DNA of 64,000 bases. It comes from an uncultured Eubacteriaceae bacterium (GTDB taxonomy: Bacteria; Bacillota; Clostridia; Eubacteriales; UBA1433). Below are positions 8,503-53,603 of this stretch, piece by piece; the stretch's first letter is position 1, and each line of letters opens with the position of its first letter. Both the position numbers and the translations under genes were made by a program. Location of the stretch: assembly GCA_964581565.1 (NCBI GenBank), contig CAZOOZ010000004.1, positions 82,115 to 146,114 on the forward strand, given 5' to 3'. The notes beneath the pieces are model-generated. The model was given only the letters and a program-made list of their open reading frames with translations. It was not told the origin of the DNA and did not search any database.

Positions 8503-9282
8503 TTAATCATCGTTATGATCACATATGATTTTATATACGACTCCCCGATTTAAATTGAGGACTTCAGCTATTTTTCTTATTGATAAATTTGTATTATTTT
8601 TCAAAAATAGAACTATTTGTATTCTTTTTTCGATGTATTCTTTTTTGTGTAGATTACTTAGTAATATATCCGTAATGTTAAAATATTCTTTTATCAAAGC
8701 CTTAGCATCTATCAGTTCATTAGTGTTATTATTTAAATCCAAGATACAATCATTGCAATCTTCATTGATGAACTCTAAAAAATAAGTATATGTTCGAGGG
8801 TTTTGATTCATACAAGAGCATTGCTGTATATAATCATAATATTCATAATATATATCTTTTGCATTAACAGATAAAATTCTTTTATAATTATTCTGATTCG
8901 ATGTCGCATGATTTATGAAATATCTTATTACTTGTAAAAATCTATCTTCATCATAAATAGCCTCACTTAAATATCGGCTATAAAACACATGACCGTATCT
9001 GGAATTTTTTCTATTATAGTAGGCCGCATAGCTAATATTTACCCTCTTCATGATTTCTGCTATATTTAATAAATTTTCTTTTATTAAAAAATGAGCGTGA
9101 TCATCTAAAATACAATATGCACATACATCGTAGTTTTTATTTAAAGATTTATTGCGAATTATTTCAATAACCTTCTTTTTATCTTCATATTCAAGGAAAA
9201 TATTTTCTGAACTATTTCCTCTAACTATTGTATGATATATTTTCGAATTGTGATAATTTCTAGCTTGTCTTGCCATATGCAC
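8503..9282 (-). CDS. Y1/HUH (IS200/RAYT-like) transposase-fold protein with C-terminal helix-turn-helix, occupying the ctsR position
   Basis: 259 aa. N-terminal IYHTIVRGN, HUH motif in ILDDHAHFLI, then YGHVFYSRY and IRYFINH (candidate catalytic Tyr region). C-terminal LSIRKIAEVLNLNRGVVYKI is HTH-like. The gene ends 13 nt before the mcsA start. Confidence 0.65.
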   Translation of the reverse strand: MHMARQARNYHNSKIYHTIVRGNSSENIFLEYEDKKKVIEIIRNKSLNKNYDVCAYCILDDHAHFLIKENLLNIAEIMKRVNISYAAYYNRKNSRYGHVFYSRYLSEAIYDEDRFLQVIRYFINHATSNQNNYKRILSVNAKDIYYEYYDYIQQCSCMNQNPRTYTYFLEFINEDCNDCILDLNNNTNELIDAKALIKEYFNITDILLSNLHKKEYIEKRIQIVLFLKNNTNLSIRKIAEVLNLNRGVVYKIICDHNDD

Positions 9283-14241: not shown

Positions 14242-14880
14242 CTATTTAAATCTGTTCCTGTTTTTCATTGTTTTTATTCTAAGTAAAAGTTGTTTATAGA
14301 AATCTTTACCGAAAAATAAAAAGAAATTAAGCAATGAACCAATGATAGCAATTCGAATAGAGCCGCTTCCTATTATAATTTCATATAAATATAAGACGGC
14401 ATTGGCATAAGCCAAATATTTAATTTTAACGGGTAAAATAAAAAATAATAATATTTCCATATTTGGGTAGAGCATTGCAAAAGCAAAGAATAAAGAAAGA
14501 TTCAAAAATGTCCCCGTAACAGGAATTTGAGATATTAAAGATGCTATAACAGTTAATACAACGCCCAAAAAATAATAAATATTAAATTTAAAACTTCCCC
14601 ATGTGCGTTCAAGTGAAGTGCCGATAAAATAATAAAAATATAAAGCTATAATAGTAAAGAAGATACCTGATGCCGGAGGAACAAAAATAAAAGTTATTAC
14701 TCGCCAAATCTGGCCTTTGAAAACTAGGGCGGGATCTAAAATAAAGTATGAAAGTATTTCAGTTCTATTTAAAACATATGCAACTACATAAATAATCGCA
14801 TTTAGTATAGTGATGTGGAGCATCAGATTCTTTATAGCATATTTACCAAATTTTTTATTTAATTTATTTAAAAATTTCAT
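14242..14880 (-). CDS. polytopic membrane protein, rhomboid-like fold without an obvious catalytic Ser/His
   Basis: 212 aa with about 6 TM segments. GQIWRVITFIFVP resembles the rhomboid WR-x-T-x-F motif, but I see no GxSG. Confidence 0.45.
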   Translation of the reverse strand: MKFLNKLNKKFGKYAIKNLMLHITILNAIIYVVAYVLNRTEILSYFILDPALVFKGQIWRVITFIFVPPASGIFFTIIALYFYYFIGTSLERTWGSFKFNIYYFLGVVLTVIASLISQIPVTGTFLNLSLFFAFAMLYPNMEILLFFILPVKIKYLAYANAVLYLYEIIIGSGSIRIAIIGSLLNFFLFFGKDFYKQLLLRIKTMKNRNRFK

Positions 14881-15029
14881 TTAATTTCCTCGTAATTTAA
14901 GATATGTTGCCTTTATATTCTATATTGTTTAGATAAAAATGTAAATTAGTAAATTAAATAGATAAAAATTTATTTGCGAAATATGATGATAACGATATAG
15001 TTTATTATAAGCAAATTTCAAATTTATGC

Positions 15030-15474
15030 AAACAGATAAGCAGACCTGCAATCTCATATAAGAAGAGGTCTGCTTAACTTTTGAAGATGTACCGCAATGG
15101 TGTACTTCCTCCTTTTTCTCTCCTATCCCACTCATCTATAAAACTCATATTCTATAATTAAGAAATAAAGTATTCATGATCAATGGGAAGGTACATATTT
15201 GAAAATTACAGTTTGGCAACCATTGCAAGCCGCTTATAATCTTCTCAACCAAATACGTTATAGCTGTTTTCATTTATATCTTTTCTTTATATGATCCATC
15301 CTATGCTTTTGATAAACGATATACAGTAAAATTACTGTTTTTTCGTTTTCTCTAAACCCTTAGGCTCAACATACTTTGAAACATATATTGAATCAATACT
15401 GAAAATGCATATCCGTACAGGTGCGTAACCTTATCGGAGGTTCCAGATAATTCGGTAAACCTTTTCATCTGGTG
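15030..15474 (-). ncRNA. candidate ~445-nt structured non-coding RNA of unassigned family (copy 1)
   Basis: Bounded by its own promoter and hairpin terminator. No SD-preceded ORF. Several nested and long-range complementary segments (listed in findings). Confidence 0.55.
15037..15076 (-). terminator. hairpin terminator at the 3' end of the repeat-encoded RNA (copy 1)
   Basis: 10-bp stem TAAGCAGACC/GGTCTGCTTA with a 20-nt loop. It is followed on the minus strand by AUCUGUUU (a weak U tract). Confidence 0.5.
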
Positions 15475-15480
15475 GGTTTC

Positions 15481-15509
15481 ATTGTATACGATATCACTTT
15501 CTTTGTCAA
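15481..15509 (-). promoter_or_regulatory. near-consensus sigma-A promoter of the repeat-encoded RNA (copy 1)
   Basis: On the minus strand: TTGACA (15509-15504), 17-nt spacer, TACAAT (15486-15481), preceded by an A-rich UP-like tract (AAAAATTTCCAAAAAAGTA). Confidence 0.7.
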
Positions 15510-15532
15510 TACTTTTTTGGAAATTTTTTACT

Positions 15533-16021
15533 CTAATTTTCTGCGTCTGTATGAATTACCAAAACCGGACACGGGGCTTCTGCCAGTACTCTTTGTGCAA
15601 CCGAACCAATAAAGAAACGTTTTATTTTAGAAAAGCCTCTGTTTCCTATAACAATCAAATCAAATTTTTCATTTTGGGCTGTTTCTAAAATTTTAATATA
15701 AGGCTCGCCAAAATATATTTGTGTTTCAAACTCAATATTTGTAAAATCAAATTCGGAAAGAATAGATTCTAGCAAATCTGATGCATTATGCACCATTATT
15801 TGCTTCAATGCTTCATCATCTATTTTTGTGTCCCTGCCGATAATGATTGAACCATCAACTTGGCGCCAGAGCTGTTCGTTTATTTTAAACATTCTTGCAT
15901 AGTCATAATGAACGACGGTAATCAGTTTAAGATACGATTTTTTGGCTTTTGATATTTCTATCGCTTTTTTTACAGCATTTTTAGAGGCGGTAGATCCGTC
16001 TACAGGAACTAATATTTTCAT
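15533..16021 (-). CDS. universal stress protein (UspA family, ATP-binding type)
   Basis: 162 aa starting MKILVPVDGS, with the C-terminal G-x2-G-x9-G(S/T) motif (GNRGFSKIKRFFIGSVAQ). Confidence 0.85.
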   Translation of the reverse strand: MKILVPVDGSTASKNAVKKAIEISKAKKSYLKLITVVHYDYARMFKINEQLWRQVDGSIIIGRDTKIDDEALKQIMVHNASDLLESILSEFDFTNIEFETQIYFGEPYIKILETAQNEKFDLIVIGNRGFSKIKRFFIGSVAQRVLAEAPCPVLVIHTDAEN

Positions 16022-16092
16022 GATAATCTCCTTTAAATTTATTGAAAATATTTTTTTGAAAAAATGATGTGTAAATATTATCTATATTTTTA

Positions 16093-16980
16093 TTATGATT
16101 GAAGTTCCGTTTCCTTTTTTACTATATTTATTAAATAATGCAAAAATTCATCTTTAATATCTTTTCGTTTTAAGGCTGTTTCAACGGTTGCTTCTAAAAA
16201 GCCTTGTTTGCTTCCTAAATCATAACGTCGACCTTCGAATATATAAGCGAAAACTTTTTCAACTTCAGCGAGTTTGTTTAATGCATCTGTTAGCTGTATT
16301 TCTCCTCCTTTACCCGGCGATGTTTCATCAAGTATTTTAAATATTGTTGGTGTAATGATATATCTTCCCAAGATTGCTATGTCGGATGGAGCATCACTTT
16401 CTGAAGGTTTTTCTACAAGACCGTTCACTTGATAAATGCTATCAGTTATTTTTTTCCCGTCAACTATACCATATTTATTAACTTGAGAAAGCTCAACTTG
16501 CTGAACACCCAAAATTGTTGATTGATAGTTGTCAAATACGTCAATCATTTGTTTTAAACATGGCGTGTGATCGTTATCTACAACATCATCGCCAAGCAAA
16601 ACTGCAAAAGGTTCATTACCTACAAATGTTCTCGCGCAATAAATTGCATGTCCGAGTCCCTTAGGTTCTTTTTGTCTTATATAATGGATTTCGGCAAGTT
16701 CGGAGATGTCTTTTACAATTTTTAAGAGATCGAAATTGTTTTTTCGTTCAAGTTCTTGTTCAAATTCAATTGATCGATCAAAATGATCTTCGATCGCTCG
16801 TTTGTTTTTTCCTGTAATAATGAGAATTTCATCGATTCCGGAATTTATTGCTTCTTCAATAATATATTGAATAGTGGGTTTGTCTACAATCGGAAGCATT
16901 TCTTTTGGCATTGCTTTTGTTGCCGGCAAAAAACGCGTTCCCAATCCTGCTGCCGGAATGATCGCTTTTCGTACACGCAT
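16093..16980 (-). CDS. galU: UTP--glucose-1-phosphate uridylyltransferase
   Basis: KAIIPAAGLGTRFLPATKAMPKEMLPIVDKP N-terminus and LGDD motif; 295 aa. Confidence 0.93.
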   Translation of the reverse strand: MRVRKAIIPAAGLGTRFLPATKAMPKEMLPIVDKPTIQYIIEEAINSGIDEILIITGKNKRAIEDHFDRSIEFEQELERKNNFDLLKIVKDISELAEIHYIRQKEPKGLGHAIYCARTFVGNEPFAVLLGDDVVDNDHTPCLKQMIDVFDNYQSTILGVQQVELSQVNKYGIVDGKKITDSIYQVNGLVEKPSESDAPSDIAILGRYIITPTIFKILDETSPGKGGEIQLTDALNKLAEVEKVFAYIFEGRRYDLGSKQGFLEATVETALKRKDIKDEFLHYLINIVKKETELQS

Positions 16981-17361
16981 ATTAATTTATACCTGCCTTT
17001 ATCATTGCATAATTAATTATTATAATATTGCTTTTTGTTTTAAAGAATAACATATTGAATAGAAAATTTCAACCAACAAGGGTTTTTACGTGTTCATAAA
17101 AAATAAAAATTTAGATAGTTTTCTTATGATTGACAGAGTAATAAAATTTGTATTTTTCTATGCAATATGTTAGCATTGTAAATAATATTTCAGTTTTGTT
17201 AATATAAATTTACATAAAATTTACTTGTGCCAGTATAAAATTAAAGACGTGATATTTAAGTTTAGCAAAATATTATTTCAGATAAAATATTCTGCTTTGT
17301 AGATATTATTAAAAAACATATAGACAATAGACATAAAGGCTAAATGATAGGAGGAATGATA

Positions 17362-19551
17362 ATGAATAAAATAATTATTATTTCAAACAGATTACCCATC
17401 ACAGTGCAAAAAAATATTGAGAATAATATTGAATATATAGAAAGTATAGGTGGTTTATCTACCGGACTAAAAAATATTCATCACCAAGGCAACAGTATTT
17501 GGATCGGTTGGCCGGGTATATCAACAGATAAATTAACAGAAAATGAAAGAAATGATATAAATAGAACATTAATTAAAGATTATAAATGCCTTCCTGTTTT
17601 TTTGTCTGAAGATGAAGTAAATCTTTATTATCATGGTTTTTGTAATAAAACAATATGGCCATTGTTTCATTATTTTCAAGAAAAAACTGAATATGATTTT
17701 GAAACTTGGGAAACATATAAATCGGTAAATTTGAAATTTTTTAAAACAGTTGAATCGATAATCGAAAAAAACGATATTGTTTGGGTGCATGACTATCAGT
17801 TAATGTTGCTTCCTGAAATGATAAAAACAAAATATTACAGCACACAAGTTGGTTTCTTTTTACATATCCCCTTCCCTTCAGCTGAAATATTTAGATTGTT
17901 AATTTGGCGCAATGAAATTTTAACTGGAATTCTAGGTGCTGACTTAATCGGCTTTCATACTTATGACTATGTCCGGCATTTTTTGAGCAGTGCGAGAAGG
18001 TTGCTTGGATTGGAAGATAATTTAAATAAAATAGCATATGAAAATAGATATGTGCAAGTCAATGCTTTTCCTATGGGCATTGAATATAAACGTTTTTTTC
18101 AATACTGTGAAGTACATGATATTGTTGATAATGATGAGGATGATTTTGTAAATATAGGAAATATAAAAACAATACTCTCAGTCGACAGGCTCGACTATAC
18201 GAAAGGTATTCCGCAACGCATAAAATCATTTGGCAGATTTTTAAAAAATTATCCTGAATATCAAGGGAAGGTAATCTTAATTTTGATAGTTGCTCCATCA
18301 AGAGTGGAAGTTGACTCTTATAATCAATTATTACGACAAATCAAAGAGCAAATCAGTGAAATAAACGGAAGATACGGAACCATGAAATGGGTACCGATAT
18401 TATTTTTCTTTCGTTCTTTTAGTCAAGAAAAATTAATAGAATTTTACAGGCAGACAGATGTTTTACTTGTGACTCCGCTAAGAGACGGAATGAATTTAGT
18501 GGCAAAGGAATATATAGCTTCGAGAAATGACTATAAAGGAATGGTGGTAATCAGTGAAACTGCAGGTGCCGCTAGTGAATTGGGAGAAGCGATTATAGTC
18601 AATGCCAATGATTTTAATTCAACAGCCGAAGGAATCAAAATTGCGCTTGAAATGCCGGAAGAAGAGATTATCACAAGAAATAAAAGGATGCATGAGCGGT
18701 TAAAACGTTATAATGTTTACTTTTGGACTTCGGAATTTTTAAATTCTCTCAATCAAACTGTGATAGAATCAATCAATATAAGTACGCAAAAAAATGCAGA
18801 AGAAAATATTGAGATTATTAAAACTGAATATAAAAAAGCAAATAAAAGAGTTTTGTTTTTAGATTATGATGGCACTTTGGTAGGGCTTACATCAATACCT
18901 GAAAAGGCAAAACCTGATGAACAAATTAAAAATTTATTGACAAAATTAGCATCTGATCCACAAAATACTGTAGTAATCATTTCGGGCAGAGATCGCTATG
19001 TATTAACAAAATGGTTGGGGGATCTAAATTTATCTCTAATTGCATCTCATGGATTATGGCTGCGAACAGAAAAACAAGATGAATGGAGAATAATGATTGA
19101 TTTAGATAATGATTGGAAAAGCTCGGTGCGTACTATTTTAGAATTATATACAGACCGTATCCCTGGTTCATTTATTGAGGAAAAAGAATTTTCTTTAGCG
19201 TGGCATTACAGGCAGTGTGATCCGGATATTGTAGCATCAAAACTTAGTGAAATCAAAGATGCACTTCTATCTATGATTCAATCCAGCACTTTAGAGCTGA
19301 TAAATGGAAATAAAGTATTAGAGATAAACGATAGCAGATTTAACAAAGGATATGCGGCTTTGAATTTATTGCAAAATCAAGAGTGTGATTTTATATTTGC
19401 TGTTGGTGATGATGCCACAGATGAAGATTTATTTTCATTATTGCCAAAAAATGCGTACACTATTAAAATAGGAGCTGGTAGCACAAATGCGGGCTATAGA
19501 ATGAAGTCATGGCGCTCTCTAAGAAAAATGTTGGAGGAATTGACTGATTAA
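17362..19551 (+). CDS. otsA: fused trehalose-6-phosphate synthase (GT20) / trehalose-6-phosphate phosphatase
   Basis: The N-terminal ~470 aa carry GT20 motifs (ISNRLP, WVHDYQLMLLP, GFFLHIPFPS). The C-terminal ~240 aa carry HAD TPP motifs (LFLDYDGTL, GDDATDEDLF). Start set at ATG 17362, 7 nt after AGGAGG; the track start is 17344. Confidence 0.9.
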   Translation: MNKIIIISNRLPITVQKNIENNIEYIESIGGLSTGLKNIHHQGNSIWIGWPGISTDKLTENERNDINRTLIKDYKCLPVFLSEDEVNLYYHGFCNKTIWPLFHYFQEKTEYDFETWETYKSVNLKFFKTVESIIEKNDIVWVHDYQLMLLPEMIKTKYYSTQVGFFLHIPFPSAEIFRLLIWRNEILTGILGADLIGFHTYDYVRHFLSSARRLLGLEDNLNKIAYENRYVQVNAFPMGIEYKRFFQYCEVHDIVDNDEDDFVNIGNIKTILSVDRLDYTKGIPQRIKSFGRFLKNYPEYQGKVILILIVAPSRVEVDSYNQLLRQIKEQISEINGRYGTMKWVPILFFFRSFSQEKLIEFYRQTDVLLVTPLRDGMNLVAKEYIASRNDYKGMVVISETAGAASELGEAIIVNANDFNSTAEGIKIALEMPEEEIITRNKRMHERLKRYNVYFWTSEFLNSLNQTVIESINISTQKNAEENIEIIKTEYKKANKRVLFLDYDGTLVGLTSIPEKAKPDEQIKNLLTKLASDPQNTVVIISGRDRYVLTKWLGDLNLSLIASHGLWLRTEKQDEWRIMIDLDNDWKSSVRTILELYTDRIPGSFIEEKEFSLAWHYRQCDPDIVASKLSEIKDALLSMIQSSTLELINGNKVLEINDSRFNKGYAALNLLQNQECDFIFAVGDDATDEDLFSLLPKNAYTIKIGAGSTNAGYRMKSWRSLRKMLEELTD

Positions 19552-19597
19552 ACTATATCATTACCTGTATATCAGGCAGAAAGGAGATTTAGTTTGT

Positions 19598-21877
19598 ATG
19601 AAAGATGACATCTATGAAGTTACCGATCTAAATTTAAGTACATATCATCTTAAGTTAAATGAAGCATTGTTTCATAATGCAAACGGGTATATTGGAATCA
19701 GATATGATTTTGAAGAAGGTTACGGAGATAAAATGAAATATATCCCGAGCCAGTATATCAATGGATTTTATGATTTTACAGAGATGAAACAGGCAGAAAA
19801 TTTATATGGCTTAATAAGAGAAAAACATGTCATGGTAAATATAGCAAATACTCAATTTATAAAATTATATGTTGATGATGAAGAATTTAGCATGTTTACC
19901 GGTACAATATTGCAAAGTAAATTATCCTTAAATATGGACAAAGGAATAACAATAAGAGATGTGATTTGGCGTTCTCCTAAAGGCAAAGAAGTGCATATTG
20001 CCATAAAACGCATGGCATCTTTTCATCAGTTATCGCTTTTTACGATTGACTATGAAATAGAATTATTAAATTTTTCAGGGAAAGTAGTTTTTGACTCCTT
20101 GCATGATGGCAATGTAATGAATTATGCACAACCATTTGATCCTCGTATTGCGGATGACTTTGAAAGTTATATTTACCCCGTAAATTGTGAAATTAAAAAT
20201 GAAGGATCATGTATCACTTCTGTGACATCAAAATCTAATTTAAATGTATGCAGCTATGTAAAAAATATATTTTTTAAAGAGCATCAAAATGAATTTAAAA
20301 TTAATAATAATCAAACTTTAAATCGAATAAAAGCATATGCCGATAAAGGTGAAAAGATTAGATTAATTAAGTATGCCGTATTTTCAGATTCTATTCGTTA
20401 TAAAAATTGTAAAGAACAATGTTATAAGGAGATGAAAAATGCACTTGCTTTGCCTATAGAAGACTTATATAAAAAGCAGGAAATGTATATTGCAAATTTT
20501 TGGGAAAATTGTTTAATCGAAATTGATGGCGATGATGAGTTGGATATGGCGTTGAATTTTAATTTATATCAACTTTTGCAATCTGTGAGCAAAGATCAAT
20601 TCGGTAATATTTCTCCCAAAGGACTCAGCGGAGATGGATACGACGGACATTATTTTTGGGATTCTGAAATGTATGTACAACCATTTTTTACAATTACAAA
20701 TCCGAAAATGACAAAAAAGCTGATTGAATATCGTTATGCTATATTAGATAAAGCAAGAGAAAACGCAAGGTTGCTCGGTCATAAAAATGGAGCGCTTTAT
20801 CCATGGAGAACAATAATGGGGAAAGAATGTTCCGGATATTTTCCGGCAGGATCTGCGCAGTATCATATAAACGGAGACATAGCATATTCAATTATTGCCT
20901 ATTATCTAGCGACGAAAGATGAAGAGTTATTATTAAAACAAGGAATGGAAATTATTTTTGAAACAGCAAGGATATGGCTTGATACAGGAAATTTTCATGA
21001 TGAAAAATTTCATATTAATACGGTGACAGGCCCGGACGAGTATACTTGCCTGGTGAACAATAATTATTACACAAATGTCTTGGCGCAATATCATTTAAAT
21101 TGGGCTGTGAAATTTTATTATCTCTTTAAAGATAATGAAAGCTTTGCGGAATTAACAAAAAAAATAAATCTATACGAAGATGAAATTAAAACATATAAGA
21201 TTGCTGCAAATGCAATGTATTTACCTTATGACGAAACATTAAAAATCAATCCACAGGATGATTCGTTTCTGCAAAAGGAAAAATGGGATATTGCCAGTAT
21301 TCCAAAAGAATTCTTTCCCTTGCTTCTTCACTATCATCCCCTTCATATTTACAGATATCAGATATGTAAGCAAGCCGATACGGTTATGGCACATTTCATC
21401 ATTGAAGATGCACAATCTGAAGAAACAATGAAAAATTCGCTTTTATATTACGAAAAAATAACAACACATGATTCTTCTTTATCAAAGCCGATTTTTAGCA
21501 TTATGGCTGCGAGACTTGGCATGGAAAAGAAAGCATATAAGTATTTCGGAGATTCGGCAAAATTAGATTTAATGGACTTAAATAAAAATACTGAAGACGG
21601 AGTGCATATAGCTAATATGGCTGGAAGTTATTTGATGATCGTCTATGGCTTTGCTGGATTTAGATTAAAAGAAAGCGGAATATCATTTTGGCCAATGATA
21701 CCAGATGAATGGAATTCATATTCTTTTAGAATAGTATATGAAAACAGTAGAATTAAGGTAAGTATTCATAAAGAAGAATGCTTATTCTATCTCGAAAAAG
21801 GAAAAAGGAAAAAGATAAAAGTTTATGGCAAAGAATATCTATTAAAAGATCATTTAATTGTTGAAAAATCAAATTAA
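19598..21877 (+). CDS. GH65 glycoside phosphorylase (trehalose/kojibiose/maltose phosphorylase family)
   Basis: 759 aa with GLSGDGYDGHYFWDSEMY, the GH65 catalytic-domain signature region. The trehalose substrate is inferred from context only. Confidence 0.85.
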   Translation: MKDDIYEVTDLNLSTYHLKLNEALFHNANGYIGIRYDFEEGYGDKMKYIPSQYINGFYDFTEMKQAENLYGLIREKHVMVNIANTQFIKLYVDDEEFSMFTGTILQSKLSLNMDKGITIRDVIWRSPKGKEVHIAIKRMASFHQLSLFTIDYEIELLNFSGKVVFDSLHDGNVMNYAQPFDPRIADDFESYIYPVNCEIKNEGSCITSVTSKSNLNVCSYVKNIFFKEHQNEFKINNNQTLNRIKAYADKGEKIRLIKYAVFSDSIRYKNCKEQCYKEMKNALALPIEDLYKKQEMYIANFWENCLIEIDGDDELDMALNFNLYQLLQSVSKDQFGNISPKGLSGDGYDGHYFWDSEMYVQPFFTITNPKMTKKLIEYRYAILDKARENARLLGHKNGALYPWRTIMGKECSGYFPAGSAQYHINGDIAYSIIAYYLATKDEELLLKQGMEIIFETARIWLDTGNFHDEKFHINTVTGPDEYTCLVNNNYYTNVLAQYHLNWAVKFYYLFKDNESFAELTKKINLYEDEIKTYKIAANAMYLPYDETLKINPQDDSFLQKEKWDIASIPKEFFPLLLHYHPLHIYRYQICKQADTVMAHFIIEDAQSEETMKNSLLYYEKITTHDSSLSKPIFSIMAARLGMEKKAYKYFGDSAKLDLMDLNKNTEDGVHIANMAGSYLMIVYGFAGFRLKESGISFWPMIPDEWNSYSFRIVYENSRIKVSIHKEECLFYLEKGKRKKIKVYGKEYLLKDHLIVEKSN

Positions 21878-21908
21878 CGTTAATAATGATAAAACAATGA
21901 GGGAAATT

Positions 21909-22544
21909 ATGAAGTATAAAGCAATTGTTTTTGATCTTGACGGAGTATTATGCAATACTGATAAATATCATTATTTAGCTTGGAAACAGCTCACTGATGA
22001 ATTAGGCATCAATTTTGATGAACAGATAAATAATCGACTCCGGGGAATCGGTCGTATGGATAGTTTAAATATTATTTTAGAATCTTATGAAGAGGCATTT
22101 TCTAACGAAGAAAAAGTGGCTTTAACGGAAAAAAAGAATACATATTATAAGAAATATCTTGAAGATTTATCCGAAAAGGATCTTTTACCGGAAATAAAAG
22201 ATACACTTGATAAACTTAGAGCAAAAAAATTAAAATTGGCTATAGGTTCTTCAAGCAAAAATACAAAGCTCATATTAAAACAATTGGGATTAGGAAATTA
22301 TTTCGATGCTATATCTGACGGAACCAATATTCATAAATCAAAACCCGATCCTGAGGTTTATTTAAAAGCGAGTATATTTTTAAATATCCAACCTCAAGAT
22401 TGCCTGGTTGTTGAAGATGCTCTCTCTGGTATTCAAGCCGCAACAGCGGCTGGGATGGATTGTGCGGCTATCGGCGATGGAGTCAGATACAATCTTGCGC
22501 GTTATAGTTTAAATACATTTTCAGAACTATTAAATATAGTTTAG
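21909..22544 (+). CDS. pgmB: beta-phosphoglucomutase
   Basis: MKYKAIVFDLDGVL HAD motif I, GSSSKN, and EDALSGIQAA. Follows a GH65 gene. Start moved to ATG 21909, after GAGGGA. Confidence 0.88.
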   Translation: MKYKAIVFDLDGVLCNTDKYHYLAWKQLTDELGINFDEQINNRLRGIGRMDSLNIILESYEEAFSNEEKVALTEKKNTYYKKYLEDLSEKDLLPEIKDTLDKLRAKKLKLAIGSSSKNTKLILKQLGLGNYFDAISDGTNIHKSKPDPEVYLKASIFLNIQPQDCLVVEDALSGIQAATAAGMDCAAIGDGVRYNLARYSLNTFSELLNIV

Positions 22545-22570
22545 TTTTCATATATATTCGTGGAGGAAAT

Positions 22571-23584
22571 GTGATGATTATAGCTGCTGATATTGGTGGG
22601 ACAAAGTCTGCCCTCGCCTATTTATATAATAAAAATGATAAAATATATATATTAAGACAAAAAAAATATTTAAATAAATATTTTAATTCATTTGAAGAAG
22701 TATTGGAAACTTTCTTCAGCGAACATCCAGAAATAAAACAGATAAAGTATGCATGCTTTGCCGCCGCGGGGCCAATTATGGATGATAAGTGCTATATGGT
22801 CAATTTAGGCTGGACAGTCGATAAGAAAAAAATTATAGAAAAATTTCCAAGTATTCAAAACATAGTATTGTGTAATGATCTTGAAGCAGTTGGTTTTGGA
22901 TTAAAAATCTTATCAGATAAAGAAATTATTAATCTTACTCCGCAACTGCATAATAATCATTTTGAAGATGAAAAGAGATATGCGATTATAGCGCCGGGGA
23001 CTGGTCTCGGAGAAGCGCTTATAATAAATGATAAAGTATATCCTTCAGAAGGGTCTCACTGTAATTTCGGACCTAATTCTAAAAAGCAAATGCAGTTGTG
23101 GGAATTTCTTTTTAAAAAATTCGGGCATGTCAGTTATGAAAGAATTTTATCCGGCCCTGGTTTGCGTGAGGTGTTTCTTTTCTTAATAAGCGAAAAGAAA
23201 ATCGATAATGCAGAATTTGAAATAATTCCGGAAGAAATTACGAAAAGAGCACTTGCAGGCACCTGTGAAATATGTAAAGAAACAATCGATTTATTTGCGG
23301 AAGTATTAGGATCCGAAGCAGGAAATGCAGCTTTAAGAATACTTGCTGTGGATGGGATATATTTAGGTGGTGGAATTTTACCTAAAATTTTACCTTTAAT
23401 ACAAGAACAAAAATTTTTAGATGCATTTTATAAAAAAGGAAGATTTACCGATTTAATAAAAAAAATTCCTGTATTTATTATTATGAACAGTAACGCCGCA
23501 CTTTATGGAGCTGCTTTAGTTGCTTTTAATAAACTATATCCAATGATACAGTTTGATGCAATTGAAGATGATGTAGTGAATTAA
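22571..23584 (+). CDS. glk: glucokinase (Glk family)
   Basis: IAADIGGTKSALA N-terminus and GGGI near the C-terminus; 337 aa. A GGAGG SD lies upstream; the start is GTG 22571 or ATG 22574. Confidence 0.8.
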   Translation: MMIIAADIGGTKSALAYLYNKNDKIYILRQKKYLNKYFNSFEEVLETFFSEHPEIKQIKYACFAAAGPIMDDKCYMVNLGWTVDKKKIIEKFPSIQNIVLCNDLEAVGFGLKILSDKEIINLTPQLHNNHFEDEKRYAIIAPGTGLGEALIINDKVYPSEGSHCNFGPNSKKQMQLWEFLFKKFGHVSYERILSGPGLREVFLFLISEKKIDNAEFEIIPEEITKRALAGTCEICKETIDLFAEVLGSEAGNAALRILAVDGIYLGGGILPKILPLIQEQKFLDAFYKKGRFTDLIKKIPVFIIMNSNAALYGAALVAFNKLYPMIQFDAIEDDVVN

Positions 23585-23603
23585 TTAAAATGCAATTATT
23601 TAT

Positions 23604-24048
23604 AAACAGATAAGCAGACCTGCAATCTCATATAAGAAGAGGTCTGCTTAACTTTTGAAGATGTACCGCAATGGTGTACTTCCTCCTTTTTCTCTCCTAT
23701 CCCACTCATCTATAAAACTCATATTCTATAATTAAGAAATAAAGTATTCATGATCAATGGGAAGGTACATATTTGAAAATTACAGTTTGGCAACCATTGC
23801 AAGCCGCTTATAATCTTCTCAACCAAATACGTTATAGCTGTTTTCATTTATATCTTTTCTTTATATGATCCATCCTATGCTTTTGATAAACGATATACAG
23901 TAAAATTACTGTTTTTTCGTTTTCTCTAAACCCTTAGGCTCAACATACTTTGAAACATATATTGAATCAATACTGAAAATGCATATCCGTACAGGTGCGT
24001 AACCTTATCGGAGGTTCCAGATAATTCGGTAAACCTTTTCATCTGGTG
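23604..24048 (-). ncRNA. candidate ~445-nt structured non-coding RNA of unassigned family (copy 2)
   Basis: Same promoter, body and terminator as copy 1. Here it is convergent with glk. Confidence 0.55.
23611..23650. terminator. hairpin shared by the copy-2 RNA (minus strand) and probably glk (plus strand)
   Basis: 10-bp stem TAAGCAGACC/GGTCTGCTTA located 27 nt after the glk stop. It is followed by AACTTTT on the plus strand and ATCTGTTT on the minus strand. Confidence 0.5.
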
Positions 24049-24054
24049 GGTTTC

Positions 24055-24083
24055 ATTGTATACGATATCACTTTCTTTGTCAA
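24055..24083 (-). promoter_or_regulatory. near-consensus sigma-A promoter of the repeat-encoded RNA (copy 2)
   Basis: TTGACA (24083-24078), 17 nt, TACAAT (24060-24055) on the minus strand. Confidence 0.7.
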
Positions 24084-24240
24084 TACTTTTTTGGAAATTT
24101 TTAATATTTATTAAATTATCATATAGTATTCACATAAATACCATCTGCATATCAATTTCAGTAAGTATTATCTTCTTATTAAATCGGCATTTGCATGTTT
24201 TCAATTTATGAACTAAATAATATTTCAAAGGCAAAATGAG

Positions 24241-25170
24241 ATGAACAATCATTCGGAGCCAATTATTATTTTATATAATTTAAATTTACAAAACATATTA
24301 TCTATTAAAAAGATAAAAGAATCTGGATTGCATAATATCAGCGTAAAATATGATGAAAAAAATGACGTCATTGATATTATTGACGACAACAGAAAATCAC
24401 AAAAATATGCTTGCATATCTTGCGACATAAAATATAGCAGAATAATTAATGAAATAATCGCCGGAATAGATTATGCGAATAAAAACTATTCTAATTGTTC
24501 TGGCTATATAGTCATTGATGCTCAATATGGAGGATTGAGTATCAATAAAATACAAAAAAATGTAAATAGATTAAAATGCAATTTTAAAAATCATAAATTA
24601 TTGTTTTTAAATTTTGTTTCAAATTTTATATTTTTTTCATTTTGTCATGTTAAATTTGGATATTTTAATAGGTATTTGCATTTAATAGCAATACCAAGAA
24701 ACGTATCAAAAGCATCTTTGTCGATGTTGGATAAGTCATATAGAACCTTCATTTATAATATCTTTTTTAAATTATATTATAATATATATAAATATAGCCT
24801 GTCTTCCTTCATGTGTGCAATTGTGGATTTATCATTATTTTATTTTTTAAATATGTTGTTTGGTTCTACAGCAAACGGAATTTTAGCTTCAACCGTACTT
24901 GCAAGATTAACTTCAGGAAGCACCAATTTTGCTCTAAATAAATATTGGGTATTTAAAAGTAAAAATTATATTAATAAAGAATTATATAAATATATTGGAT
25001 TATTTTGTTTTCAAATGATTTCAAGTTGGATATTTGTAACATTACTCGGCAATTTCTCGATACCACTTTTATTTACGAAAATATTTGTAGACATGATGCT
25101 ATTTATTATGAGTTACTTCATACAGAAAAAATATATTTTTAACGACAAAAAGGAAATAGAGCATTTATGA
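24241..25170 (+). CDS. membrane protein with a C-terminal GtrA-like domain and an uncharacterised N-terminal domain
   Basis: The C-terminal 130 aa have 4 TM segments and LTSGSTNFALNKYWVFKS, the GtrA signature region. The N-terminal ~170 aa have no motif I recognise. Confidence 0.6.
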   Translation: MNNHSEPIIILYNLNLQNILSIKKIKESGLHNISVKYDEKNDVIDIIDDNRKSQKYACISCDIKYSRIINEIIAGIDYANKNYSNCSGYIVIDAQYGGLSINKIQKNVNRLKCNFKNHKLLFLNFVSNFIFFSFCHVKFGYFNRYLHLIAIPRNVSKASLSMLDKSYRTFIYNIFFKLYYNIYKYSLSSFMCAIVDLSLFYFLNMLFGSTANGILASTVLARLTSGSTNFALNKYWVFKSKNYINKELYKYIGLFCFQMISSWIFVTLLGNFSIPLLFTKIFVDMMLFIMSYFIQKKYIFNDKKEIEHL

Positions 25171-26087
25171 GAAGATTAAAACACTTTTTTGCAAAACCAT
25201 ATAGATGGGCTATCATATATTCTTTTGTGTTAGTTAGTTTTTTTGTATTTGCACTGATTGATACATTTATAATTCCAAAATTAATGATTGTAGAAGAAAG
25301 CAAAGAAAATTCATTGCCGGAAACCGCTCTTCAAGATTCAAGTGAAGCTATCATTACAGATTTATCGTATAAAGACAAAAATATAGAAATTACAATACAA
25401 ACAATAAGAGAATACGAGACGACAATTTACATAGCTGATATTCAGCTGTTTGATGCATCTTATTTAAAAACAGCATTCGCTGAAAACGCATTCGGACGCA
25501 ATATCAAGGAAAAAACTTCTGGTATTGCTAAAAAAAACAATGTAATTTTTGCTGTAAACGGTGATTACTATGGATTTAGAGATAAAGGATATGTACTGCG
25601 TAATGGCGTGCTTTATCGCTCTGTTTCAAGAGATAATGAAAATGTTGATGACTTGGTTATAAATAATTCAGGAAATTTATATATTATTCAAGAGAATGAA
25701 GTCAGTATAGAATCATTAAACATAGATAACATTAGTCAAATATTTTCATTTGGACCGGCTTTAGTAGAAAATGGGCAGATTATTGTCAGCAGCGCCAGTG
25801 AGGTGGATCAATCCAAAAACAGCAATCCCCGCACTGCCATTGGGCAAATATCGCCTCTTCATTATATTATTATTGTTTCTGATGGACGTACTGATGAGAG
25901 TGAAGGTCTTTCATTATTACAGCTTGCACAGGTATTTTTGGATCAAGGCTGCAGTGTTGCTTATAACTTAGACGGTGGCGGTTCATCCACAATGTATTTT
26001 AACGGAACAATTATTAATAATCCTACAGATGGCAGAAATGATGGAGAAAGAGAGATAAGTGACATTATATATATTGGATATGAATAA
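25167..26087 (+). CDS. phosphodiester glycosidase family protein (DUF2233/NAGPA-like)
   Basis: N-terminal TM anchor, AVNGDYYGFR, RTAIGQ, and NLDGGGSSTMYF motifs. Confidence 0.8.
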   Translation: MRRLKHFFAKPYRWAIIYSFVLVSFFVFALIDTFIIPKLMIVEESKENSLPETALQDSSEAIITDLSYKDKNIEITIQTIREYETTIYIADIQLFDASYLKTAFAENAFGRNIKEKTSGIAKKNNVIFAVNGDYYGFRDKGYVLRNGVLYRSVSRDNENVDDLVINNSGNLYIIQENEVSIESLNIDNISQIFSFGPALVENGQIIVSSASEVDQSKNSNPRTAIGQISPLHYIIIVSDGRTDESEGLSLLQLAQVFLDQGCSVAYNLDGGGSSTMYFNGTIINNPTDGRNDGEREISDIIYIGYE

Positions 26088-26481
26088 AAATAAACAGCTT
26101 TTTAAAACATCTGCAGTCTATTTTGTCTTATCTATAACGGCAATCCTTGTAAATAATGTTTATGCCATTTTTGGTCATGGAATGCGCTCGGCGGCTATGA
26201 CCTGGATGTTTTTATATTTATTAATAGGGGGAACACTTTTCTATTTGTCAATTAGGTTTTTCTTTGTAAAAATTACAAAGCATAAGAGTTACAGAGTTTT
26301 TTTCAATCTTTATAATTCAGGAATTGCTGCTCTTACAGCGGGTAGCTTATTTAAAGGCATCATCGAAATTGCCGGCTCAAGTTGTGTGCATACGAAAATA
26401 TTTTTTATAGTTGGTTTGGTGTGTATTTTATTTTCCAGTATTATTTTGATATTGATGATATTTGAAAGCAAATGGACGTAA
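26059..26481 (+). CDS. small hypothetical integral membrane protein
   Basis: 140 aa (or about 133 aa from ATG 26080) with 4 hydrophobic helices. Overlaps the upstream gene, so it is probably co-transcribed. Confidence 0.5.
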   Translation: MTLYILDMNKNKQLFKTSAVYFVLSITAILVNNVYAIFGHGMRSAAMTWMFLYLLIGGTLFYLSIRFFFVKITKHKSYRVFFNLYNSGIAALTAGSLFKGIIEIAGSSCVHTKIFFIVGLVCILFSSIILILMIFESKWT

Positions 26482-33262: not shown

Positions 33263-33339
33263 TGGAGCTACTGAGCGGACTCGAACCGCTGACCTGCTGA
33301 TTACGAATCAGCTGCTCTACCAACTGAGCCACAGTAGCT
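33263..33339 (-). tRNA. tRNA-Thr (anticodon CGU), CCA encoded
   Basis: The reverse complement folds by hand into a cloverleaf. Acceptor AGCTACT/AGTAGCT, D arm GGCT..GAGC, anticodon stem GCTGA/TCAGC with loop TTCGTAA, T arm AGCGG-TTCGAGT-CCGCT, 3' CCA. Confidence 0.9.
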
Positions 33340-53251: not shown

Positions 53252-53603
53252 TGGTGGAGGCGGCGGGAGTTGAACCCGCGTCCAAAAGCGTATTCACAAA
53301 ATTTTCTCCGAGTGCATTCGCTTTTCTTTTTTCATTTTCATTTAGACGGGCGACCGACTGAATGAAAACTATCCTCTTAAATTTTCAAAAGATTTCGAGG
53401 AAAAATCATTTGAGTTTCCTGCATTATTTGATGCCTTAAAATATCACGCAGGAATGATAAATCAAGACATTGCAGCAATTACGCTGCAAAAGCTAATTTT
53501 TCGTTTTTAGCGTTTAAATTTAATTGCCATCATTATAACGGTATTTGGCATTCCCGACTCGCTTATTTTGCTTCAACACCCCTGTCGAAACCATTGCGCC
53601 CCC
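53252..53603 (-). ncRNA. ssrA: tmRNA (SsrA)
   Basis: 5' GGGGGCGCAATGGTTTCGACAGGGG and 3' GGACGCGGGTTCAACTCCCGCCGCCTCCACCA. The acceptor stem has a G3-U pair. The tag frame GCT AAA AAC GAA AAA TTA GCT TTT GCA GCG TAA encodes AKNEKLAFAA and is followed by the GCAGC/GCTGC hairpin. Confidence 0.95.

Follow-up and report, generated by a model that had tools for sequence, protein, structure and literature searches.

The window analyzed here is a stretch of 64,000 nucleotides (nt) from an uncultured Eubacteriaceae bacterium (assembly GCA_964581565.1, contig CAZOOZ010000004.1, positions 82,115 to 146,114 of the forward strand), and on its minus strand, at positions 15030-15528, lies a 499-nt element that occurs there in two identical copies. 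By the evidence of its sequence, this element is a real, selected and structured non-coding RNA gene that matches no known family. The reading that we hold to be probable, if well short of certain, is that the gene is independently transcribed and that its product is most likely a trans-acting regulatory or protein-binding RNA under cis-antisense control. Much of the evidence comes from comparison with a sister species (uncultured Eubacteriaceae bacterium isolate SRP241341_co1_246), the record of which likewise contains exactly two copies of the element.

A preliminary description of the same DNA had proposed a structured non-coding transcription unit of an undescribed family, and this core reading stands, having passed every test set by that description that could be run. 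Absent from it were an antisense promoter inside the element and the role of the two copies as the arms of a trehalose island. Together with a mosaic pattern of purifying selection, these two features are the better-supported of the new facts reported below.

Limits of the transcription unit

The repeat unit of 499 nt is composed of an UP-like A-tract, a promoter, the RNA and a terminator, as follows.

15030..15528, minus strand: element copy 1, with 100% identity to 23604-24102 and unrelated flanks; same-species metagenome contigs stop exactly at its edges
23604..24102, minus strand: element copy 2, of the same sequence as copy 1; convergent with the glucokinase gene and 19 nt past its stop codon (open reading frame (ORF) end 23584)
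15481..15509, minus strand: sense sigma-A-type promoter TTGACA-17-TACAAT, 11/12 consensus positions; copy 2 counterpart at 24055-24083
15030..15474, minus strand: predicted sense RNA of ~445 nt, the start inferred from the -10 box; supported by its minimum free energy (MFE) fold, the z-score of the sister ortholog and strand-specific pair preservation
15034..15079, minus strand: terminator hairpin and U-rich tail, the 3' half of which, TGCAGGTCTGCTTATCTKTTT, is kept in all four lineages in which the element is found

The coordinates and strand first assigned to the unit proved correct, as did its designation as the first of two copies: 15030-15528 equals 23604-24102 over 499 nt, and the flanks are unrelated from the first outside base. 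Profile searches of the window found no third copy. The promoter originally recognized, TTGACA (15509-15504) and TACAAT (15486-15481) on the minus strand with a 17-nt spacer, agrees with the consensus at 11 of 12 positions, a score reached by only 10 sites in the whole window with both strands counted (128 kb). In the sister species the two hexamers are unchanged and four substitutions fall in the spacer, as one would expect of a functional promoter. The proposed terminator is present in every fold, as the stem UAAGCAGACC (15076-15067) / GGUCUGCUUA (15046-15037) followed by UCUGUUU; a simple terminator scanner did not call this hairpin because its loop is too long and the U-tract is interrupted. 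The unit is thus delimited by a promoter and an intrinsic terminator, both predicted from sequence, as is an independent bacterial small or non-coding RNA gene.

Conservation and structure of the RNA

Identity between the elements of the two species is ~79-83% overall and very uneven. Runs of 63 nt (15058-15120), 50 nt (15198-15247), 22 nt (15455-15476) and 21 nt (15030-15050) are invariant, and the stretches between them are 48-60% identical. As a neutral gauge, usp and the DER1-like gene, which flank the element, agree between the species at 60-65% of their third codon positions; with a neutral identity of 0.62, the two longest invariant runs have chance probabilities of ~4e-11 and ~2e-8. 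Past the terminator, identity drops at once to an unalignable level. About half of the RNA evolves neutrally, and selection on the element takes the form of a mosaic in which purifying selection holds modules invariant among neutral spacers.

The predicted RNA of the window folds at -126.4 kcal/mol, with z = -6.99 relative to dinucleotide shuffles, as compared to z = -2.84 for the opposite strand. When the sister RNA is folded on its own, nearly the same architecture results, with z = -6.73. In order to avoid circularity, the structure was taken from one species alone and the real substitutions of the other were scored for the pairs that they break, the null consisting of 1000 sets in which substitutions of the same number and type were placed randomly within 30-nt bins. 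The sense strand lost 21 and 22 pairs where 36.3 +/- 3.8 were expected, with at most 1 in 1000 null sets performing as well. The antisense-strand control gave 28 broken pairs against 29.7 (fraction 0.39) and 28 against 34.3 (fraction 0.07). Pairs are therefore preserved in the strand-specific manner of a structured RNA, with moderate support drawn from two lineages. Once one spurious long-range helix is removed, an RNAalifold consensus contains 119 pairs, none of them broken. It includes six double-sided changes (0-2 when partners are slid by 1-3 columns) and 19 additional pair types (5-9 in the slid controls), and change per site is 0.10 in paired and 0.31 in unpaired columns. All five single-nucleotide polymorphisms (SNPs) found within the species are structure-neutral. 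These comparisons indicate that selection acts on the structure of the RNA predicted from the minus strand, the features of which are listed here from 5' to 3'.

15443..15472, minus strand: P1, a 5' hairpin pairing CCAGAUGA with UYAUYUGG; of its 8 pairs, two alternate between G-U and G-C; the run 15455-15476 is invariant
15412..15438, minus strand: P2 hairpin, UCCG/CGGA with an inner AGGU/RCCU, from the consensus; stands in for the AACCU/AGGUU helix
15267..15405, minus strand: P3, a long-range, multi-tier AU-rich rod of short helices and internal loops with two hairpins inside, including 15317-15345
15193..15258, minus strand: P4, the central hairpin, strand-specific by virtue of five G-U pairs; 15198-15247 is invariant between species
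15122..15191, minus strand: P5, in which CCUUCCC pairs with GGGAUAGG around a variable hairpin; one compensatory C-G to U-A change, and four one-sided changes in the inner helix
15100..15124, minus strand: purine tract GGGAUAGGAGAGAAAAAGGAGGAAG containing a Shine-Dalgarno (SD)-like AAAGGAGG; part of the near-invariant 3' block; P5 and P6 sequester some of it
15083..15111, minus strand: P6 hairpin GAGGAAGUAC / GUACAUCUUC, invariant

P3 carries four of the six double-sided compensatory changes, and in the same rod the change from ACAGUA/UACUGU to ACAGUG/UACUGU makes a G-U pair that is valid on the minus strand only. In the closing helix of P4, one pair has changed in a compensatory manner and one from G-U to G-C.

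The helices first picked out by eye met with mixed fortunes, two of them failing in the sister. CCAGAT/ATCTGG (15443-48 / 15467-72) is kept in the sister species by way of G-U to G-C changes. Of the two nested stems proposed at 15314-48, the inner one, ACAGTA/TACTGT, is retained with an A-U to G-U change, and the outer one, AAACGA/TCGTTT, is reduced to CGA/UCG in the consensus, since the sister has UCGCUA. AACCT/AGGTT (15427-31 / 15438-42) is broken in the sister, where AACCU has become AUACU, and AAACCC/GGGTTT falls outside the consensus, is one pair short in the sister and is in part situated 5' to the likely start site. The GTACTTCC/GGAAGGTAC helix comprises invariant bases only.

Coding potential

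That the unit holds no coding gene, as had been surmised, is confirmed by cross-species frameshifts and start-codon losses that remove every ORF. The homologs differ by indels of 1, 1, 2, 2 and 1 nt, that is, by non-triplet changes rather than by the codon-periodic substitution that the preliminary description had named as the sign of a missed small-protein gene. Specifically, the sister species has a frameshift past codon 9 of a 38-codon ORF at the 5' end, lacks the ATG of a 42-codon ORF and shifts its frame through a 2-nt deletion, and also lacks the ATG of a 68-codon ORF running through the terminator. No ORF of either strand keeps its frame between the two species, and neither exact look-ups of the 42- and 68-amino-acid (aa) ORFs nor a protein search with the latter in large collections returned a gene call or a protein. 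The SD-like AAAGGAGG is followed 10 nt on by a TTG, from which a 7-codon frame (TTG CGG TAC ATC TTC AAA AGT TAA) runs to a stop at the base of the terminator; part of the tract is sequestered, and this micro-ORF is putative.

A predicted antisense promoter inside P4

The element also carries a promoter-like sequence on the opposite strand, with a predicted transcript.

15213..15240, plus strand: antisense promoter-like TTGGCA-16-TATAAT, 11/12 consensus positions, within the invariant P4 block; copy 2 counterpart at 23787-23814
15247..15352, plus strand: putative antisense RNA of ~105 nt, with a U-rich unstructured 5' part followed by the 15314-15348 hairpin and a T-run; its 3' end is uncertain

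The promoter-like sequence is identical in the sister species. Only six 11/12 sites of this type occur outside the element in the window, both strands considered (128 kb), so that a chance site inside the 445-nt element would be expected ~2% of the time. A cis-antisense RNA of ~100 nt that would pair with the 3' half of the P3 rod may plausibly be produced from this site. An overlap of this kind is a trait of type I toxin-antitoxin systems; the element offers a strong, conserved promoter for such an RNA but a weak terminator, and the RNA itself is a prediction.

Distribution among relatives

Direct DNA scans were of limited reach: with a 20-mer from the 5' domain, the genome collection yielded 0 matches and the metagenome collection two chance matches with no further similarity. 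Homologs were better reached by walking outward from the flanking genes. Same-species metagenome contigs stop inside the element or exactly at its edges, as is expected because the element is a repeat. The closest relatives of the DER1-like membrane protein encoded downstream of copy 1 share 91, 90 and 88% identity with it, and the next one 69%. In the 90% lineage, the sister species, gene order is shared and element homologs stand at both positions (L029:9336-9838 and L029:764-1260); a genome-collection scan with TGCAGGTCTGCTTATCTKTTT, from the conserved 3' end, hit only these two sites. In the 88 and 91% lineages, every contig begins 24-34 nt before the 3' end of the element, a breakage which implies that the element is a repeat there too. 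Accordingly, flank-gene look-ups recovered only 24-34 nt of the copies of lineages 3 and 4. In the relatives at 69 and 66%, single-sequence and profile nhmmer searches found no homolog in the syntenic gap. The element thus occurs as two copies in the window and in the sister metagenome-assembled genome (MAG), behaves as a repeat in the other two lineages, and is confined to one genus-level clade of four species-level lineages of uncultured Eubacteriaceae. Contig breaks at element positions 78, 203 and 218 had been taken to reflect variant family members; an A/G SNP near position 78 between alleles and the k-mer lengths of the assemblers fit them better.

Two observations concern the surrounding genes. 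Firstly, the 69 and 66% relatives carry, between the DER1-like gene and tsaE, an insert of 375-740 nt with small ORFs on both strands (L036:10636-11011 and L040:6636-7374); the two genes are adjacent in the clade of the window, which does not have this insert. Secondly, a 259-aa gene with a Y1-transposase domain (PF01797, IS200-like) lies at 8503-9282 on the minus strand, beside a UVR-domain gene, an mcsB-like gene and clpC. Three of the four clade lineages keep it in synteny, as does the 69% relative, the lineage-4 loci being compared only up to the UVR-domain gene, and this conservation suggests a domesticated rather than a mobile gene.

Searches against known families

At the Rfam 15 gathering score, the whole window contains only a tmRNA (53252-53603, minus strand, 195.8 bits), situated where it had previously been placed, and one tRNA (33266-33338, minus strand), both outside the element. 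The covariance-model search that had been proposed as a check was extended to E<=10 with both the window copy and the sister-species copy, and no credible family was matched. The permissive matches are terminator-hairpin look-alikes (among them miRNA precursors and a viral pseudoknot), all far under threshold. As far as covariance models tell, therefore, OLE, ROOL, GOLLD, HEARO, raiA, RNase P, 6S, SRP, T-box and riboswitches are excluded.

Three candidates were also weighed one by one and set aside. For RNase P, the GGAGGAAG tract lies at the wrong end and the covariance model gives no match; for a ColE1-like primer RNA, the RNA stops at a terminator and there is no origin context; and for a CsrA sponge, a hand count of eight GGA motifs in 445 nt is near the expectation from base composition. 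Separately, a weak match to CRISPR-DR43 in the promoter region of the DER1-like gene (14911-14939, plus strand; 24.8 bits against a gathering score of 35, E = 0.15) is almost certainly due to chance, being a single unit with no array. BLAST against plasmids returned nothing beyond a marginal 48-nt match, in which 15341-15388 (element 141-188) is 85% identical (E = 3e-4) to a hypothetical-protein region of the Finegoldia magna plasmids NC_010371.1 and NZ_CP085956.1; the likeness probably stems from chance or low complexity.

The element copies as arms of a trehalose island

The two copies enclose a set of genes devoted largely to sugar metabolism.

15529..23603: trehalose island between the copies, 8.1 kb, with usp, galU-like, a trehalose-6-phosphate synthase/phosphatase fusion (otsA/otsB), GH65 phosphorylase, beta-phosphoglucomutase and glucokinase genes, as judged from ORFs and Pfam labels

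The edges of the island are the edges of the element, 4 nt past the usp stop codon at one end and 19 nt past the glucokinase stop codon at the other. In contigs from two different projects (L013/L022 and L015/L025), the GtrA-like gene (24241-25170) is joined to the DER1-like gene (14242-14880) across one element; both flanks are >99.9% identical to the window, and the gap of 786 nt equals 138 + 499 + 149. These contigs represent a precise island-free allele with a single element copy, one side of a polymorphism of the island in natural populations. A further contig, L006, joins usp, the element and the glucokinase flank, with ~40 nt that differ from the window at the glucokinase 3' end; this junction fits an excised circle or a tandem duplication, and an assembler path through the repeat may also account for it. 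Within a genome the copies differ at 0 positions in the window and at 4 in the sister, as compared to ~20% of sites between orthologous copies, and thus the copies evolve in concert.

The ORF list and Pfam labels show no integrase or recombinase in the island, only usp and sugar-metabolism genes, and in place of the short att repeats of an integrase-type attachment site the repeats are the full 499-bp gene. It is well supported that the two copies serve as 499-bp homology arms, kept identical by recombination, that give rise to island-carrying and island-free alleles. Homologous recombination across these arms would be the simplest mechanism of island exchange.

The position of the copies also bears upon transcription of the island. 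Read on the plus strand, 23604-23654 presents the terminator hairpin followed by AACUUUUG (UUUU), and copy 2, lying 19 nt past the glucokinase stop codon, probably doubles as the terminator of the plus-strand trehalose operon. At copy 1, no separate terminator stands between usp and the element, and usp transcripts should therefore read into the latter. Beyond copy 2, the GtrA-like, NAGPA-like and 133-140-aa protein genes (24241-26481, between the SPL-family gene and copy 2) are missing in the sister (L029:1-763), in which the same divergent promoter region leads straight into the SPL-family gene; the element thus has a second clean insertion or deletion beside it.

Interpretation and alternative explanations

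The observations above can be assembled into a model in which the sigma-A-type promoter would yield an RNA of ~445 nt ending at the intrinsic terminator. This RNA is predicted to fold into a 5' hairpin pair (P1, P2), the P3 rod, P4 and a 3' module (P5, P6 and the terminator) with a purine-rich, SD-like tract. It would act through the surfaces of the invariant 3' module and of the P4 hairpin, and antisense RNA from the P4 promoter would set its level or activity.

Several considerations weigh against this reading. With regard to structure, only two diverged full-length lineages are available, so that the covariation amounts to one divergence event, and the consensus was derived from the very alignment used to test pairing. 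Roughly half of the substitution-touched pairs in each single-sequence MFE fold are broken, which renders the fine structure uncertain. The P4, P6 and terminator helices are invariant and hence untestable by covariation; the invariant blocks are silent on pairing and could equally reflect constraints at the DNA level. With regard to expression, the promoter, the start site, the efficiency of the terminator and the antisense RNA are all predictions, and the antisense terminator hairpin, ~70-100 nt past the start, is weak, with an AU-rich inner stem of 5-6 bp. With regard to function, a trans-acting or protein-binding role is a best guess drawn from analogy. No target, ligand or protein partner was identified, and a duplex-energy scan of the RNA against 57 initiation regions of the window was uninformative (mean of -26.7 kcal/mol for the real regions and -25.9 kcal/mol for shuffled ones). 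The top score in that scan, regarded as unconvincing, fell on the initiation region of the Y1 gene (8503-9282).

An explanation at the level of DNA, which we consider unlikely, would cast the element as the sequence at which the island recombines or attaches, or else as a promoter/terminator insulator cassette, with any transcript incidental. The exact coincidence of unit and island edges, the existence of island-free and junction contigs, the concerted evolution of the copies, and the inclusion within the invariant blocks of two promoters and a terminator able to work both ways all agree with such an explanation. A constraint on DNA does not predict, however, that pairs are preserved on the sense strand only, by way of G-U to G-C and G-U to A-U switches, and the island contains no integrase or recombinase gene. 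Moreover, homologous recombination requires identity within a genome rather than conservation between species, and therefore cannot explain invariant runs of 50-63 nt among neutral spacers.

Similarly unlikely is a more ambitious version of the RNA-gene reading, in which the element would be the founding member of a new structured class of ~450 nt. Such an RNA would form a ribonucleoprotein (RNP) or ribosome-interacting particle by means of its SD-like 3' module and central hairpin, would be under cis-antisense control and functionally coupled to the stress/trehalose island between its copies, and would have remoter homologs too diverged for the k-mer and profile searches used. If this were true, the RNA might control expression of the island genes or promote excision or amplification of the island.

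It is less likely again that the element acts in cis, as a long 5' leader with a regulated attenuator for the DER1-like/tsaE/tsaB/rimI/tsaD operon downstream, in which translation of the micro-ORF or binding of the antisense RNA decides read-through. Several traits invite this interpretation: in the island-free allele the element stands 149 nt upstream of the DER1-like gene in the same orientation; a strong SD-like AAAGGAGG precedes the TTG by 10 nt and the micro-ORF stop abuts the terminator stem; the U-tract is interrupted, so that termination may be partial; and an antisense promoter within a leader is the architecture of countertranscript attenuation of the pT181/pIP501 type. A leader would, however, be expected to have a co-oriented downstream gene relying on read-through at each copy, and copy 2 has none, opposing instead the 3' end of the glucokinase gene. 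At copy 1, the DER1-like gene has a promoter of its own (TTTACA-17-TAGAAT, 14945-14917), which is kept in the sister, in lineage 3 and in the 69% relative without the element, and relatives run the same operon without such a leader. In addition, the SD-like tract is largely sequestered in P5 and P6.

Very unlikely, in our estimation, is a type I toxin-antitoxin-like cassette in the manner of hok/sok or fst, in which the sense RNA would serve as mRNA for a small toxic peptide, with the ~100-nt antisense RNA to restrain it. The two near-consensus promoters on opposite strands, a predicted antisense RNA wholly within the sense RNA, a long and highly folded sense RNA with a strong, sequestered SD sequence, and a duplicated locus beside a variable island are all reminiscent of these systems. 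The toxin itself is what the element does not offer: no ORF of at least 15 codons is conserved between species, all being frameshifted or deprived of a start, and the frames behind the SD encode only 7 aa (from TTG) or 14 aa (from AUU) and are not hydrophobic. In lineage 3, the peptide of the AUU frame changes non-synonymously while the local hairpin is kept.

Finally, a non-autonomous mobile element (a miniature inverted-repeat transposable element (MITE), an insertion sequence (IS) remnant or an IS200/605-type PATE) or a phage or plasmid fragment, as might be suspected from an exact repeat with sharp boundaries that breaks short-read assemblies and lies ~6 kb from a Y1-transposase-like gene (8503-9282), can be dismissed as extremely unlikely, given that two species ~20% diverged each carry exactly two copies, at matching syntenic positions, and none elsewhere in the window or the sister MAG, that terminal inverted repeats (best match 7/15) and target-site duplications in the flanking bases of either copy are absent, that BLAST against phages and viral-collection scans with four k-mers gave 0 matches and plasmids the marginal 48 nt only, and that the Y1 gene keeps its synteny even in relatives without the element. 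The same tests answer the concern, raised at the outset, that the segment might be simply the end of a known IS or prophage.

If the reading as an independently transcribed RNA gene is correct, the element adds a delimited, structured RNA under purifying selection, with no Rfam 15 match, to an uncultured Eubacteriaceae genus. To our knowledge, almost no regulatory RNAs have been characterized in this group. The element is also a clean natural case of a duplicated RNA gene serving as homology arms for the gain, loss and possibly amplification of an island for trehalose synthesis and recycling, and its invariant modules (15058-15120, 15198-15247 and 15455-15476) mark the bases at which mutagenesis may be directed. 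Its narrow distribution and unassigned function limit its general importance for now.

Comparison with known systems

The size range of the element, its Firmicute host and its strongly non-random fold are shared with the large RNA classes OLE (RF01071), ROOL (RF03087), GOLLD (RF01998), HEARO (RF02033) and raiA (RF03072), to which the preliminary description had likened it in size. These classes span many genera or phyla and display dozens of covarying pairs. The element, in contrast, gives no match to their models at E<=10, is found in one genus and is about half neutral; restricted as it is to a single genus-level clade, it has not earned the likeness, and is a lineage-specific RNA rather than a widespread class of the OLE/ROOL kind.

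In its opposed transcription, the element resembles hok/sok, fst, pT181/pIP501 and the ColE1 RNA I/RNA II pair: a folded sense RNA, an internal, opposed, strong promoter, a predicted antisense RNA of ~100 nt and a downstream terminator. It differs from these systems in having no conserved toxin ORF, in that copy 2 has no rep or other regulated gene downstream and the operon beside copy 1 has its own conserved promoter, and in that its sense RNA ends at a terminator and not at an origin.

As an island boundary, the element recalls the tRNA and tmRNA genes at which islands integrate, in that a small RNA gene stands at both island edges and repeats define gain and loss. At those sites, however, a 3' segment of 15-100 bp is repeated and an integrase is involved, whereas here a whole 499-bp gene with its promoter is duplicated and there is no integrase. 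The near-perfect SD AAAGGAGG with no credible ORF behind it is similarly reminiscent of the Bacillus STAB-SD of the cryIIIA leader; unlike STAB-SD, which lies near the 5' end of its mRNA, the tract of the element is ~95 nt from the 3' end and partly paired, and could at most protect a short 3' fragment.

Lastly, the RNAIII of Staphylococcus aureus (514 nt) and the VR-RNA of Clostridium perfringens (~386 nt) are lineage-specific regulators of Firmicutes. The element has no sequence or covariance-model similarity to either and no evident quorum-sensing or two-component context, and the C-rich target-binding loops typical of RNAIII are not seen in it, its conserved single-stranded feature being purine-rich. 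In common with both, it would produce an RNA of 400-500 nt from its own promoter to its own intrinsic terminator, with multiple hairpins, a narrow taxonomic range, little or no coding content and conserved modules that alternate with variable spacers.

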